A stretch of 64,000 bases of DNA, from the IMG/VR virus record IMGVR_UViG_2609459800_000001, one strand, 5' to 3'. Below are positions 18,165 through 24,521 of this stretch, piece by piece. Origin of the DNA: a virus. Its lineage: Duplodnaviria > Heunggongvirae > Uroviricota > Caudoviricetes. The notes below the pieces were generated by a model. It did no database searches. It worked only from the letters and a program-made list of their open reading frames with translations, and had not been told where the DNA came from. Made by a program: the position numbers and the translations under genes. The stretch's first letter is position 1. Each line of letters starts with the position of its first letter.

Positions 18165-18827
18165 ATGCTCGCCTGGAGGCTGAATTTGCAGCTGAGAATG
18201 AACATACCACCCAGGGCGACTAGGACTGTTTTTTGTGTCGGTAGCGGTCCGTCACTCACTCGTGAGGACTGTGCTGCTATAGAAAAAACTGGCTGTTCAA
18301 TCATTGCGGTTAACAATTCCTGGCAGATGTTCGATGACATTTATGCCTTATACGCCGGTGATTTGTCATGGTGGAAGCAATACGGTTCCACCATACCGGG
18401 AGGGAGGTTCCGCAAAGTGACAGCCAACCTGGCGGCGGCGAAATCATTTTCGTTGGAGTACAGGCGATATTGTGGACCGGCTGAAGGGGTTAATAGCGGC
18501 GCGCAGGCTATCAGTCTGGCGGCTGAATCAGGGGCTGAAGTAGTTGTATTAGTCGGTTATGACTGTTCTCTGCAAAACGGCCTCCATTGGCATGGTGCGC
18601 ACCCTCAAGCACTACGGAATCCAACGCAGGTGTCTATTTCAAAATGGCAACAGCAGTTCCTGGATACCCGCAAAAAACACGCAGATTTACATATTTTGAA
18701 TGCAAGTAGGAGCAGTGCAATTCAATGTTTCCCAAGAATAAATTTAGAGGCAGTGATCGCGTTATTATCGTCGGCAGTGGCCCAAGCGCCGCAAACTTTG
18801 TTGCGCCGCGCGGAGTGCCGATTATAG
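18165..18827 (+). CDS. hypothetical protein with GSGPS motif (DUF115/MptE-like?), paralogue of next gene
   Basis: ORF track 220 aa; FCVGSGPSL...IIAVNN...VGYD; true start uncertain. Confidence 0.4.
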   Translation: MLAWRLNLQLRMNIPPRATRTVFCVGSGPSLTREDCAAIEKTGCSIIAVNNSWQMFDDIYALYAGDLSWWKQYGSTIPGGRFRKVTANLAAAKSFSLEYRRYCGPAEGVNSGAQAISLAAESGAEVVVLVGYDCSLQNGLHWHGAHPQALRNPTQVSISKWQQQFLDTRKKHADLHILNASRSSAIQCFPRINLEAVIALLSSAVAQAPQTLLRRAECRL

Positions 18828-19351
18828 CGGTCAATGGGGCCATCGACTGGCTTAACCGCGCTTCTTATTTTTTCACCCTTGATCCATCGCCAGACAATAT
18901 GCGGCGCGTTGGTCGTGGCCGCCGTCGCCGTGGTGTTTGTTATTGCATGGCACTACCCGATGTTAAAGAACGTGAAATCAGAGATGGCGTTCTGTGCTTC
19001 CGTCGTGTGGCTGAACGCGGCACAGAGCCAAAAAATACGAATTCTCCCGAGTGGTGGGCGTGGCGCTGGTCCGCACATTTCGGACTTTGCGAAGATGAGA
19101 ATGAAATTGCCAGCGGCAATAGTGCATATGGCGCTCTGAACCTGGCTTTCCATATCGGATTCAAACATGTCGCCCTGGTGGGCGTTGACGCTACACAAGA
19201 ACCACGCGTTCACTCCGGCGGCACGCCAAAAAATCTAAGTCACCTGCCTTTGTTATTCCAGTCTGCGCGTGAACGGATTGACGTTGTTTCATGCGGGAAA
19301 ATGGGAGGTATTCCGCAGATGACTCTTAAAGAATGGCTGAAGAATACATGA
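18725..19351 (+). CDS. hypothetical protein with GSGPS motif (DUF115/MptE-like?), paralogue of previous gene
   Basis: ORF track 208 aa; [12 protein letters not shown]...[10 protein letters not shown]...VGVD; 103-bp overlap with previous ORF. Confidence 0.4.
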
Positions 19352-20025
19352 TGGCACCCACAATTTATCACCGTATCGACGGTACCAAATACAGGAATGT
19401 CTGGGTTGTTGGTGATCTGCATGGTTGCTACACCAGACTGATGTCCGAACTCCATCGTGTGGATTTTGACCCTGCGCAGGATTTACTGATATCGGTCGGC
19501 GACCTTATCGATCGCGGCACCGAAAATGTTAAATGCCTGGAGCTATTGCAGATGCCATGGTTCAGAGCGGTTATGGGCAACCATGAGCGGCTGATGATTG
19601 ATGCGTTAAGTCCTGATGGCAACGTGAATAACTGGCTAATGAATGGCGGTCAATGGTTCTTCATGCTGGACGCTGATCAGGAAATATTAGCCAGGGCGCT
19701 GGTGGAGTTGGTAAGACGACTGCCCTATATCATTGAGTTGAACACCGGGCAAGAAACTATCGTTATAGCCCATGCCGACTATCCGGATAATGAATATCAA
19801 TTCGGTAAGGAGGTGCCGCTTTTCAACGTTGTCTGGGCGCGCGAGCGTATCAGTGATTCGATGGATGATATTGGTGGCGAAATTTCGGGCGCAGATCGTT
19901 TTATCTTTGGTCACACTCCGGTGAAAAGCCCGAAGACATTCTGGAATCAGCATTATATCGACACTGGTGCCGTATTTTGCGGAAACCTGACATTGATGAA
20001 AGTGAAAGGTGATGGTGCAGCATGA
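19351..20025 (+). CDS. lambda-type Ser/Thr protein phosphatase (metallophosphatase)
   Basis: ORF track 19333..20025; GDLHG, GDLIDRG, GNHE motifs; start set at ATG 19351. Confidence 0.75.
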
Positions 20026-20723
20026 AGATTGCTTTAGTTCTTCGCTCTGGTGGTGACTATAACGCTTCCGATGTGCAGTGGCTGGTTAATCAACTGCCAA
20101 AAGGCTATGAAATTATTTGCCTGACAGATCTGAAGCGTTTACATGTGCCTGGCGTCAAAGTTGTCCCATTGATCAACCAGTGGCAAAAGTGCCGTGGCTG
20201 GTGGGCGAAAATCGAGTTGTTCCGACCGGATATAACCGATGATCTGTTCTATCTGGATTTGGACACGGTTATTGCCGGTGATATACGCCCAATCCTTGAG
20301 GATCCACCAACCAGCTTCACCATGCTTAGGGATTTTTACCATCCACAATATCGTGGCAGCGGTGCCCTGTGGATACCAAATAGTGTAAAAGCGCATATCT
20401 GGAGTGCATTCTGGCAAGATCCGGAAGGTTGGATTGCTCGTTGTGTTACTACTGAATGCTGGGGTGATCAGGGGTTCTTACGGAAGGTTATGGGCGATGA
20501 TACACCAGCATTTCAGGATCTGTATCCGGGATGGTTTGTAAGTTACAAGGCCGATGTTGTGGAACCTTGTTCAAAATATGCGAGCGCGCGTTACTCCAGG
20601 GGGAATGGGACATTACCAAAGGACTGCCGAATAATCTTTTTCCACGGCAAACCGCGGCCTCGCGAAGTGTCAGAGGATTGGCTTCCCCTCATTAGCTCGT
20701 TTTTTGAGCGAGAATCAGAATAA
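20022..20723 (+). CDS. hypothetical protein with DxD-like motif
   Basis: ORF track 233 aa; ATGA overlap with phosphatase gene; [11 protein letters not shown]. Confidence 0.4.
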
Positions 20724-20724
20724 T

Positions 20725-20741
20725 ATTGCTCTAATAATTCC
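20725..20741 (+). promoter_or_regulatory. C1 operator-like site
   Basis: ATTGCTCTAATAATTCC, 14/17 to consensus. Confidence 0.45.
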
Positions 20742-22866: not shown

Positions 22867-22882
22867 TTGCTCTAATAAATCT
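22866..22882 (+). promoter_or_regulatory. C1 operator-like site
   Basis: ATTGCTCTAATAAATCT, 16/17 to consensus, at stop of HAD gene. Confidence 0.5.
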
Positions 22883-23060
22883 TGATTTTTGAAGCAGAGA
22901 AAGTGAAAATAAAAACATGCCGCAAGGCGCGGCATGTTTCCAATCAATCACAGGAGCTGAAAATATGAACACGGCATTCAAAATCATTATGGCCGCGATC
23001 TATTTCTGGCTGTTCTCTATCACTTTTGGCGGCATCGTCGCGCATGGGTAAGGGGGATGC

Positions 23061-23639
23061 ATGAAAGGCGAAGTGAAAGAGCGCGGCATGATTTTCAACG
23101 ATGAGATGGTCCGGGCAATTCTTGGCGGGAATAAAACACAGACTCGCAGGATTGTTGAAGAAAAATTCTATGGACAGGCAGTGGCCGCAGAGTTGCTTGC
23201 TAAGCATTGTCCATATGGTCAACCGGGCGATCGTATTTGGGTTCGCGAAACCTACCGGGTACATGGCAAAGCGACGGACGTCGCAACGCTGGTTTATCGC
23301 GCAAGCGTGCGTAACTCCTGGACAGAACAAACGCACCGGGTTCCGGTCGAGGTTTGTAATAAACCAGTATCAGAAAAGTGGACGCCATCAATTCACATGC
23401 CGCGCTGGGCATCGCGCATTCTTCTGGAAATTACCGACGTGCGTGTGGAACGGCTGCATGACATGAGCGAGTCAGATGCTAAAGCAGAAGGCGCAACTCC
23501 GGCGACGTACAAGATTACGCCATCTGAAGCTGTTTATCGCGTTGGTTTTGGTGATATCTGGCGCAGTATTTACGGGCAGGATAACTGGCTATCTAACCCG
23601 TTGGTATGGGTAATCGAGTTTAAGCGCATTCAGGAATAA
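23061..23639 (+). CDS. ASCH-domain-like protein
   Basis: ORF track 192 aa; N-terminal FNDEMVRAILGGNKTQTRR. Confidence 0.4.
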   Translation: MKGEVKERGMIFNDEMVRAILGGNKTQTRRIVEEKFYGQAVAAELLAKHCPYGQPGDRIWVRETYRVHGKATDVATLVYRASVRNSWTEQTHRVPVEVCNKPVSEKWTPSIHMPRWASRILLEITDVRVERLHDMSESDAKAEGATPATYKITPSEAVYRVGFGDIWRSIYGQDNWLSNPLVWVIEFKRIQE

Positions 23640-23642
23640 ACC

Positions 23643-24521
23643 GTGAGTATGCATCAAGTCGTCAGCTTTTCAGGTGGACGAACATCGGCTTATCTCGTTC
23701 ATCTGATGGAAGCACAGCGAAAAGCTGGCGCTAGCGTCCATTTCATTTTTATGGATACCGGCTGTGAACATCCTCTGACGTATCGCTTTATTCGTGAGGT
23801 TGTGAAGTTCTGGAACGTACCGCTAACGGTGTTGCAGGTCGATATAAATCCAGAACTTGGGCAGCCAAATGGTTATACGGAATGGGAACCAAAGGATATT
23901 CAGACGCGAATGCCGGTGCTTAAACCGTTTATGGACATGGTTAAAAAGTACGGTACGCCATACATCGGCGGCGCGTTCTGTACCGACAGGCTAAAACTCA
24001 CCCCTTTCACGAAATATTGCGATAACCATTTCGGGCGAGGTAATTACATCACATGGCTGGGTATTCGTGCAGACGAACCCCGTAGGCTGAAACCGAAATC
24101 GGGCGTCCGGTATCTTGCCGAGCTGTCAGATTTTGATAAGTCGGATGTTATCCGGTGGTGGCGAAAACAACCTTTTGATTTGCAAATCCCGGAGCATCTC
24201 GGGAACTGTGTTTTCTGCATCAAAAAGTCAACGCAAAAGCTGGGGCTTGCATGTAAAGACGAACCAGGTCTGATGCGAGTTTTTAATGAGCTGGTTACAG
24301 GCAAACACGTCAGGGATGGTCATCGCAGAACAGGTAAAGACGTTATGTACCGTGGTCACCTGACGCTTGACGGGATTGCCAGAATGTATGCCGACAGCGA
24401 CTACAGAAATTTGTATCAGGCGATGGTGCAGGCCAAGCGGTTTGATACTGGTTCGTGTTCCGAATCATGTGAAATCTGGGGTGACCAATTGGAGTTGAAA
24501 TTCGAAGAGGTAGTGGCATGA
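23643..24521 (+). CDS. PAPS reductase / PP-loop ATP-pyrophosphatase family protein
   Basis: ORF track 292 aa; PP-loop SFSGGRTS near N-terminus. Confidence 0.55.
   Translation: MSMHQVVSFSGGRTSAYLVHLMEAQRKAGASVHFIFMDTGCEHPLTYRFIREVVKFWNVPLTVLQVDINPELGQPNGYTEWEPKDIQTRMPVLKPFMDMVKKYGTPYIGGAFCTDRLKLTPFTKYCDNHFGRGNYITWLGIRADEPRRLKPKSGVRYLAELSDFDKSDVIRWWRKQPFDLQIPEHLGNCVFCIKKSTQKLGLACKDEPGLMRVFNELVTGKHVRDGHRRTGKDVMYRGHLTLDGIARMYADSDYRNLYQAMVQAKRFDTGSCSESCEIWGDQLELKFEEVVA

Follow-up and report, generated by a model that had tools for sequence, protein, structure and literature searches.

The window analyzed here, the 64,000-nucleotide sequence of IMG/VR virus record IMGVR_UViG_2609459800_000001 (Caudoviricetes), is, judged from its sequence, a P1-like phage-plasmid. 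The stretch from 18,165 to 24,521 carries the genes pmgO, pmgP and pmgQ, which together with the detached gene dbn form a conserved cassette that quite probably encodes a set of glycosyltransferases (GTs). With confidence evenly divided, we read the core of the stretch as a glycosylation cassette whose acceptor is a virion protein, accompanied by independent mosaic cargo. From the folds, motifs, co-occurrence, fusions, neighbourhoods and regulatory sites observed, we infer the activity, the sugar donors, the acceptor and the benefit to the phage. A first-pass annotation had proposed that the genes of this stretch, together with a distant GT-like gene, are a nucleotide or nucleic-acid modification toolkit rather than unrelated hypothetical genes. 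A real co-conserved set does exist, consisting of PmgO, PmgP, PmgQ and Dbn; the other genes are separate units of the mosaic. Although P1 is much used in genetics, its pmg genes found here have for two decades been left without an assigned function, and four genes of the region now appear as one conserved cassette, often placed among head genes. The cassette genes are as follows.

pmgO, 18165..18827, + strand: Maf/DUF115 (MptE-like) fold, putative glycosyltransferase
pmgP, 18725..19351, + strand: distant paralogue of PmgO
pmgQ, 20022..20723, + strand: predicted GT8-like retaining GT-A glycosyltransferase
dbn, 11232..12230, + strand: predicted GT-B (GT4-like) glycosyltransferase, the detached cassette member, listed in the first-pass annotation as a GT1-like gene at 11256

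Co-conservation of PmgO, PmgP, PmgQ and Dbn

Only PmgO, PmgP and PmgQ, with Dbn, are co-conserved. A tblastn search of 50,697 phage records found homologues of PmgQ in 31, of PmgO in 73 and of Dbn in 22, and each of these 22 contains a PmgQ homologue too. Scans of IMG/VR and GTDB, with at most 80 loci taken from each scan, gave at least 107 PmgQ loci outside P1. Many of these loci are related, and the locus counts given below are counts of non-independent events. Open reading frames (ORFs) were called mechanically, and the genes of the loci were found by six-frame hidden Markov model (HMM) searches. By HMM, a gene of the PmgO/PmgP family lies near pmgQ on the same strand, often abutting it, in 53 of the 107 loci. 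By tblastn, 106 non-P1 loci yielded PmgO in 45, PmgP in 10 and Dbn in 2; a Ppp-like gene was found in a single one of them, a Salmonella locus where it is oriented opposite to the cassette. None of the 106 yielded Pap, PmgS, the ASCH-like gene or the PAPS (3'-phosphoadenosine 5'-phosphosulfate) reductase. The co-conservation suspected for the whole cluster is therefore confined to PmgO, PmgP and PmgQ (sometimes with Dbn), which travel together; outside P1-like phages and apart from the one Salmonella locus, Ppp, Pap, PmgS, the ASCH-like protein and the PAPS reductase do not travel with them.

The three genes stand side by side in phiNP, EP_H11, Xoo-sp13 and locus L055. In Citrobacter phiNP they abut one another between the lysis genes and terS, without ppp. 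The order in E. coli EP_H11 and IME392 is pmgO, pmgP, a gene for a 322-aa protein 48% identical to Dbn, and pmgQ. In the Xanthomonas jumbo phage Xoo-sp13, pmgO and pmgP are followed by a fusion of a TylF-type methyltransferase to PmgQ (L005:5335-6660, 441 aa). Two other fusions join the family members directly: PmgO to PmgP (P0171, 376 aa, with PmgP aligning to the C-terminal half) and PmgQ to PmgO (L071:5989-7254, 421 aa), the latter beside a Dbn-like gene. The link that had been suggested between the distant GT-like gene and the cluster is borne out by the gene order in EP_H11, by L071 and by the shared phage records. The cassette ranges over enterobacterial phage-plasmids, jumbo Xanthomonas phages and prophages of alpha-, beta- and gamma-proteobacteria.

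Predicted folds and motifs of the cassette proteins

The GSGPS motif can be read in both PmgO and PmgP. Across the PmgO family G28, P29 and S30 are nearly invariant, and S111, G112, G131 and D133 are invariant; the resulting GxGPS nucleotide-binding and (N/T)SG...GxD motifs align with the motifs of CstII. The predicted structure of PmgO has the Rossmann-like fold of the Maf/MptE/GT42 core, and its top structural match is the protein glycosyltransferase Maf. PmgP retains the GSGPS, NS and GxD elements and is without the HWHGxH motif of PmgO. Since BLASTP aligned the two proteins over the motif region alone (E 0.003), a profile comparison was needed to assess paralogy. With the fusion protein P0171 left out of the comparison, hhalign gave a probability of 98.9% and an E of 1.4e-17, and at the profile level PmgP is clearly a distant paralogue of PmgO, in agreement with the two paralogous GSGPS proteins described in the first-pass annotation. 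Sequence-profile searches of the PDB with PmgP and with Dbn returned nothing useful.

It should be mentioned that the annotated start of pmgO is probably too far upstream and that translation more likely begins with the ATG at 18198. Residues 1-13 of PmgO have a predicted local distance difference test score (pLDDT) <50, and homologues start near residue 20. The 5' end of pmgO overlaps pmgN, and pmgO and pmgP overlap by 103 nt.

The GT-A fold predicted for PmgQ is nearest to members of GT8. The DxD motif noted earlier is present as DLD (D79, L80 and D81); these residues and H208 are invariant in 36 sequences, and the DxD and C-terminal His motifs align to those of glycogenin and Skp1 GalT. No precomputed Pfam domain is assigned to any of 120 PmgQ relatives, and PmgQ forms a family of its own, phrog_1962. 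One Salmonella relative of PmgQ carries the public name 'phosphohydrolase'. In Dbn, an EX7E motif is formed by E248-SLGLTVL-E256, with both Glu residues invariant; we take EX7E in the C-terminal Rossmann domain as the mark of GT4. The Dbn homologue of EP_H11 scores 24.5 bits against Glycos_transf_1.

We propose the following scheme. PmgO and PmgP would be a Maf/DUF115-like pair, probably working together, and PmgQ a GT8-like retaining GT-A enzyme that would use a nucleotide sugar and a metal bound by its DxD motif. Dbn, detached and GT4-like, would belong with them. During the lytic phase these enzymes could assemble a short glycan in the cytoplasm, and the acceptor would most likely be a phage virion protein. 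PmgO may act as a Ser/Thr O-glycosyltransferase, possibly with a cytidine monophosphate (CMP)-activated ulosonic acid, and PmgQ and Dbn may extend the chain. Ppp would be a protein phosphatase whose gene entered the cassette in the P1 lineage, with pmgR, pmgS and pap making up a separate unit of the mosaic. The segment behind the operator OpmgT would be a cargo hotspot, holding an ASCH-like allele of pmgT and a lambdoid SspD/DndC-like gene.

Neighbourhoods and the candidate acceptor

Neighbours of the cassette were taken as same-strand genes and grouped into single-linkage clusters, the representatives of which were annotated. The recurrent neighbours encode portal, ClpP-type protease, major capsid, head-tail adaptor, head closure and neck proteins and, further, tail terminator, major tail and tape measure proteins. 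Methyltransferases of the FkbM and Methyltransf_24/CmcI/TylF types (sugar-type O-methyltransferases) are found near the cassette in 30 of the 107 loci, and GT2 and sulfotransferase genes also recur. Head or neck genes stand beside the cassette in 39 of the 107 loci, the embedding looked for as a sign of virion glycosylation, and at least three slots are occupied: between capsid and adaptor, between adaptor and head closure, and between head closure and neck. The cassette also directly follows HK97-like (Phage_capsid) genes. At L071 it comes after a capsid gene that is lambda-gpE-like by eye, and in a few loci the capsid genes near pmgQ are Gp13-like. A lone PmgO homologue (orf7) of Pseudomonas D3 is located between the major head and adaptor genes.

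The capsid C-terminus provides a correlation with the presence of a PmgO-family gene. Capsids next to the cassette had seemed to carry Ser or Thr in their tails. A set of 80 relatives of this HK97-like capsid was taken from among the matches listed, regardless of the cassette, and 67 loci were usable; in 30 of the 67, a PmgO-family gene starts ~200 nt after the capsid stop codon. Ser or Thr was found in the last two capsid residues in 29/30 loci with the PmgO-family gene vs 6/37 without it (Fisher p 7e-12; after dereplication, 2e-6 at 90% identity and 0.003, 7/8 vs 1/9, at 70%), a result to be read with the facts that the rule was chosen after viewing the data and that gene presence follows clades. 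The same rule, fixed beforehand, was applied to a second capsid family, in which the cassette is 2.5-5.7 kb away, and gave 9/20 vs 15/26 (p 0.55). With one positive and one failed test, we therefore infer the virion-protein acceptor from position and from one correlation, and hold it with confidence a little short of even.

The post hoc choice of the rule, the clade structure and the failed second test all weigh against a glycosylation cassette directed at the virion, and other observations do the same. The Pfam scores of the window proteins fall below their cut-offs: against PF01973 (MptE-like), PmgO reaches 23.4 and PmgP 20.9 bits vs a cut-off of 34.6, and Dbn reaches 25.0 bits against Glycos_transf_1 (cut-off 26.4). 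PmgQ matches no Pfam family at E up to 0.1, Glyco_transf_8 included. The DUF115/MptE-like assignment of the first-pass annotation accordingly stands for the relatives at 60-74% identity, which carry PF01973 in precomputed annotation, and for the Maf-like predicted fold, but not for the scores of the two window proteins themselves. Late-operon positions are classic moron sites too. Relatives in GT8 and GT42 include enzymes of lipooligosaccharide (LOS) and lipopolysaccharide (LPS) synthesis (LgtC, Cst-I/II), and in L094, L096, L097 and L122 (Erwinia, Rosenbergiella, Martelella) a pmgQ gene without pmgO lies directly upstream of a Wzy_C gene (O-antigen ligase/polymerase-like), which suggests that some members of the PmgQ family act on surface polysaccharide. 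The cassette genes are dispensable for plaque formation on E. coli K-12, a host that is not known to make nonulosonic acids. No glycan has been reported on P1 virions, and two near-atomic cryo-electron microscopy studies and a virion proteome paper on P1 mention neither glycans nor the cassette proteins. A collagen-like protein was considered as acceptor and rejected: it stands beside the cassette in 8 loci, yet unspecifically, being a neighbour in 6/25 capsid-selected loci with the cassette vs 10/21 without it (46 loci, p 0.13).

Some individual proteins of these loci are noted here. The HK97-like capsids of L180 and L191, each followed by a PmgO homologue, end in long Pro/Ser/Thr-rich tails, VTPLPPSTPASSTPASSTPASSTPPASS and VAPITSSVPPSTPPSSV, that look like mucin-type acceptor sequences. 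The gene right after the cassette of Xoo-sp13 (L005:6668-10987) specifies a 'host specificity' protein of 1439 aa in which linkers rich in Thr and Pro are numerous, possibly another glycosylation target. In the closest relative of the window, the protein of major capsid gene 23 (L242:17103-18809, - strand) ends ...IDAGDSE, with Ser two residues from the C-terminus. The P1-type capsid is unrelated in sequence to the tested capsid family, so this Ser carries little weight.

Alternative explanations

The reading of the whole cluster as a modification toolkit for nucleotides or for the nucleic acid of the phage, with DNA glycosylation as one example, draws on several of its genes. The PAPS-reductase-like protein is similar to SspD, DndC and BrxP, which are enzymes of DNA phosphorothioation, Pap is of the polynucleotide-kinase 3'-phosphatase (PNKP) type, PmgM is VRR-NUC-like, and ASCH domains are labelled RNA-binding in other annotations. 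These nucleic-acid-flavoured genes, however, are co-conserved neither with the cassette nor with each other, and the nucleic-acid flavour seen in the first pass holds only for the independently acquired PAPS reductase, Pap and the ASCH-like gene, not for the cassette. P1 uses the host polymerase for replication, and its DNA is routinely cut and cloned. Phage DNA glycosyltransferases do exist, GT-A and GT-B folds included, according to PMC13326640, where thymidylate-synthase homologues supply the hydroxylated pyrimidines from which the glycosylated bases known in DNA arise. In the window, tblastn with E. coli ThyA gave a best E of 0.7, a search with little power to detect very distant homologues, and no such enzyme is named in the gene table of P1. 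No nucleotide-metabolism family recurs among the cassette neighbours, which are instead of glycan type or belong to head and neck. The nearest solved relatives of the cassette enzymes (Maf, GlyE, glycogenin, Skp1 GalT and LgtC) are directed at proteins or glycans, and the nucleotide or nucleic-acid substrate is not upheld. Nucleic acid is a very improbable acceptor for the cassette, and the toolkit is hardly credible as an account of the cluster; a DNA hypermodification kit in P1 is an attractive idea that is corrected here as unsupported. A DNA-modification role is plausible for the SspD/DndC-like PAPS reductase alone.

PmgO, PmgP, PmgQ and Dbn could remodel a glycan of the host envelope, be it the LPS core, the O-antigen or some other surface polysaccharide, and mask the receptor in lytic growth, leading to superinfection exclusion or to less loss of progeny on debris, as in seroconversion. 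The LOS/LPS enzymes among the relatives and the Wzy_C loci fit such a role. In P1, however, C1 operators precede the cassette genes, so that no expression is expected in lysogens. The pmgO/pmgQ pair has no recurrent neighbour coding for a membrane component, whether a flippase, a Gtr-type protein or another, and is mostly embedded among head and neck genes, and the predicted fold of PmgO is best matched by an enzyme that glycosylates protein. An envelope glycan is thus an unlikely acceptor, and remodelling of the envelope an unlikely function of the cassette. Glycosylation of a host protein (flagellin, pilin, a defence or translation factor) for takeover or anti-defence we regard as improbable: no takeover or anti-defence neighbourhood recurs, virion genes and sugar methyltransferases recurring instead. 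That PmgO and PmgP might be small-molecule pyrophosphokinases of the MptE or thiamine-pyrophosphokinase type, making a cofactor, signal or precursor, rather than glycosyltransferases, also seems to us quite improbable.

Returning to the virion as the site of glycosylation, a wider proposal can be put forward tentatively, and as doubtful in its full extent: P1 and a broad range of Gram-negative phages and prophages would O-glycosylate their own virions by means of an unrecognised cassette of Maf-like and GT8-like enzymes. One target could be the Ser/Thr at the C-terminus of the major capsid protein in those phages whose capsid gene is directly followed by a PmgO homologue, with CMP-ulosonic acids and O-methylated sugars perhaps involved. 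If true, a classic transducing phage would possess the first system for virion glycosylation outside the actinobacteriophages, and glycosylated virions would bear on the immunogenicity and on the receptor and defence interactions of therapeutic and transducing phages.

Comparison with known systems

Mycobacteriophages glycosylate capsid and tail tube proteins with transferases of their own, as stated in PMC12363180 and PMC11256854, which cite Freeman 2023. In these systems (Che8 gp110, Corndog gp38, Myrna), phage transferases act on the phage's own capsid and tail proteins. In many phages, genes for capsid and connector proteins surround homologues of the present cassette. The enzyme families of the cassette (Maf/DUF115-like, GT8-like and GT4-like) differ from the mycobacteriophage ones, and the hosts are Gram-negative.

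The Maf flagellin glycosyltransferases (DUF115/PF01973; Magnetospirillum Maf, PDB 5mu5) have flanking domains that PmgO is without, PmgO corresponding to the core of ~180 residues only. PmgQ is 12-17% identical to the GT8 enzymes glycogenin, LgtC, GlyE and Skp1 alpha-galactosyltransferase. The top sequence-profile matches of the PmgO family in the PDB are Campylobacter Cst-I/CstII (GT42), with an E of only 0.012. The alignment of the CstII nucleotide-binding motifs with the PmgO family goes along with this match, which is the source of the PHROG label 'alpha-2,3-sialyltransferase'. The catalytic His of CstII presumably sits elsewhere than the HWHGxH motif of PmgO. In contrast to the setting of the Cst sialyltransferases, the K-12 host of P1 makes no CMP-sialic acid.

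Phage DNA hypermodification (glucosyl-hydroxymethylcytosine, hmC, in T4; arabinosyl-5-hydroxycytosine, 5hoC, in RB69/DLP3) employs phage glycosyltransferases in lytic growth, as the cassette would, and according to PMC13326640 such systems need a thymidylate-synthase-like enzyme for the hydroxylated base, of which the ThyA search found none in the window. The neighbours of hypermodification systems belong to nucleotide metabolism, whereas those of the cassette are structural genes and sugar methyltransferases.

Part of this has been public in PHROGs, RefSeq and GenBank, where the labels 'alpha-2,3-sialyltransferase', 'glycosyltransferase' and 'possible glycosyltransferase' are already used. 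The concept of the cassette, its fusions and its embedding in head modules appear to be new as far as the literature was searched. In that literature no functional papers on pmgO, pmgP, pmgQ or dbn were found; a search for DUF115 in phages gave only false matches to DUF1156, and one combining sialyltransferase, prophage and capsid found nothing.

Other genes and control sites of the region

The remaining features of the stretch and its surroundings are listed below.

ppp, 19333..20025, + strand: lambda NinI-type Ser/Thr phosphatase, between pmgP and pmgQ
pmgR and pmgS, 20805..22287, + strand: proteins of 72 aa and of 420 aa (coiled coil), neither of them an enzyme or co-conserved with the cassette
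pap, 22360..22866, + strand: HAD phosphatase of the PNKP type
ASCH-like allele of P1 pmgT, 23061..23639, + strand: identity to P1 ends at 23152, within the gene
PAPS-reductase gene, 23643..24521, + strand: PP-loop PAPS-reductase-family protein of the 'NinC' type of Shiga toxin (Stx) phages, SspD/DndC-like
pmgM, 17423..18001, + strand: VRR-NUC-like nuclease by its RefSeq product name, upstream neighbour outside the cassette
LPpmgL, 17068..17086, + strand: late promoter from the P1 annotation, 1 mismatch, upstream of the stretch and driving pmgL and pmgM
Oppp, 18008..18024, - strand: C1 operator, 1 mismatch, before pmgN-pmgQ
OpmgRa, 20725-20741, and OpmgRb, 20774-20790: C1 operators, 0 mismatches
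OpmgT, 22866..22882, + strand: C1 operator from the P1 annotation, 0-1 mismatch

The P1-like phages P1, P7, SJ46, RCS47 and vB_EcoM-Ro157c2YLVW match positions 17000-25000 at 97-98% (megablast). Positions 8000 to 23152 of the window are collinear with P1 at 98.5% identity, and from 23152 until 29718 the two diverge. The names pmgO, pmgP, ppp, pmgQ, pmgR, pmgS and pap were transferred from the P1 annotation; the segment after pap is not that of P1. All ORFs named in the first-pass annotation are present on the + strand at the positions given there, and all seven of its family guesses hold, with unequal strength; two genes within the range, pmgR (20805-21023) and pmgS (21025-22287), were not in its list. 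Its description of the region as early is fair, the promoter and operators listed above all being kept with 0-1 mismatch. The operators are conserved, and three C1-repressed units can therefore be delimited: pmgN-pmgQ (Oppp), pmgR-pap (OpmgRa/b) and the cargo (OpmgT). The baseplate operon of P1 lies between dbn and the cassette, which is oriented divergently from that operon. The match of PmgM to Pfam VRR_NUC (E 3.7e-4) is under the cut-off.

Ppp is the lambda-type Ser/Thr phosphatase recognised earlier. It scores 58.6 bits against Metallophos (cut-off 21.5), and the metallophosphoesterase motifs GDLHG, GDLIDRG and GNHE can all be read. It resembles lambda NinI, matching the NinI-like family phrog_246 with E 7.5e-113, and falls under the NCBIfam equivalog cut-offs for PrpA/PrpB. 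In phiNP and in L055, a distant P1 relative, pmgP abuts pmgQ, so that ppp is an insertion in the P1 lineage. The HAD phosphatase with a DIDGT motif is likewise confirmed: Pap scores 46.5 bits against HAD_PNKP (cut-off 27.6), and its best PDB sequence match is Pnkp1 (4xrp, E 2.2e-4). Pap shares the HAD_PNKP domain and the DxDxT motif with the T4 and bacterial PNKP phosphatases but is without a kinase domain.

Behind pap the window departs from P1. The segment from 23152 to 29718 holds ~6.5 kb of lambdoid 'ea'-type cargo (PAPS reductase, Ead/Ea22, DUF551) in place of ~0.6 kb of P1, and the ASCH-like and PAPS-reductase ORFs stand where P1 has most of pmgT and the genes that follow. The arrangement of pap with both ORFs is covered to at least 80% in only 46 of 1089 matching plasmid records, and JL22 has an adenine methyltransferase at the same spot; the segment is a variable cargo hotspot. 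The first ~30 codons of the ASCH-like ORF are still those of P1 pmgT, and its product is 43% identical to the N-terminal part of P1 PmgT. The ASCH assignment made earlier receives moderate support from the family, 3 of 5 members matching ASCH (best E 1.2e-4), and the window protein itself is a weak match at 14.6 bits vs 21.2 (E 0.055). A sequence-profile search of the PDB with the family gave no match, and a homologue search returned only near-identical copies from P1 plasmids, without domain calls.

The PAPS-reductase-family assignment is firmer, with 36.7 bits against PAPS_reduct (cut-off 22.5) and the PP-loop SGGRTS at residues 10-15. The gene is 92.7% identical in DNA and 95% in protein to the 'NinC' gene of Stx2 phages, and is lambdoid cargo independent of the cassette. 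Its product scores far under the family cut-offs for CysH (21.9 vs 154 bits) and DndC (17.6 vs 290 bits), and its sequence contains no ECG motif; a C-terminal ECGLH is what we take to be the catalytic Cys motif of a true CysH-type reductase. In PADLOC the best match is SspD (1.1e-13), followed by BrxP and DndC. The protein shares the PAPS_reduct domain and an SGGxxS PP-loop with these defence proteins, but its gene stands alone, without a DndA/B/D/E or SspA/B/C partner. DNA phosphorothioation may be what it acts on or counters. According to PMC13551039, variable anti-defence regions are where phage PAPS reductases tend to be grouped, and one such reductase promotes Dnd evasion (the latter citing Piel 2022); the window gene is likewise placed in a variable cargo hotspot. 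The ASCH-like and PAPS-reductase genes were considered as a conserved pair and rejected as such: the ASCH-like gene has different neighbours in JL22, F116 and Vibrio H20, and Stx phages have no ASCH-like gene beside the PAPS-reductase gene.

In the CRISPR interference (CRISPRi) table of PMC10695390 every gene of the stretch is non-essential in P1; the knockout data cited in that source make pmgR the only essential gene of the stretch. The neighbouring pmgN (18026-18223) is listed there as essential by CRISPRi and non-essential by knockout, and pmgR the reverse. This conflict may come from polarity on downstream genes or from incomplete knockdown. It is noted that some public product names in NC_050153.1 / NC_005856.1 are unreliable, PmgR being called 'RNA-directed RNA polymerase L' and PmgP 'norphogenetic protein'.

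Elsewhere in the window, the GC content is ~0.48, with outliers of 0.58 at 54001-56000 and 0.41-0.44 at 28001-32000. The part from 41.5 to 64 kb matches P1-like phages only piecemeal; in the best-matching P1-like records, the features under this match include a RelA/SpoT family protein, transposases and DNA methylases.

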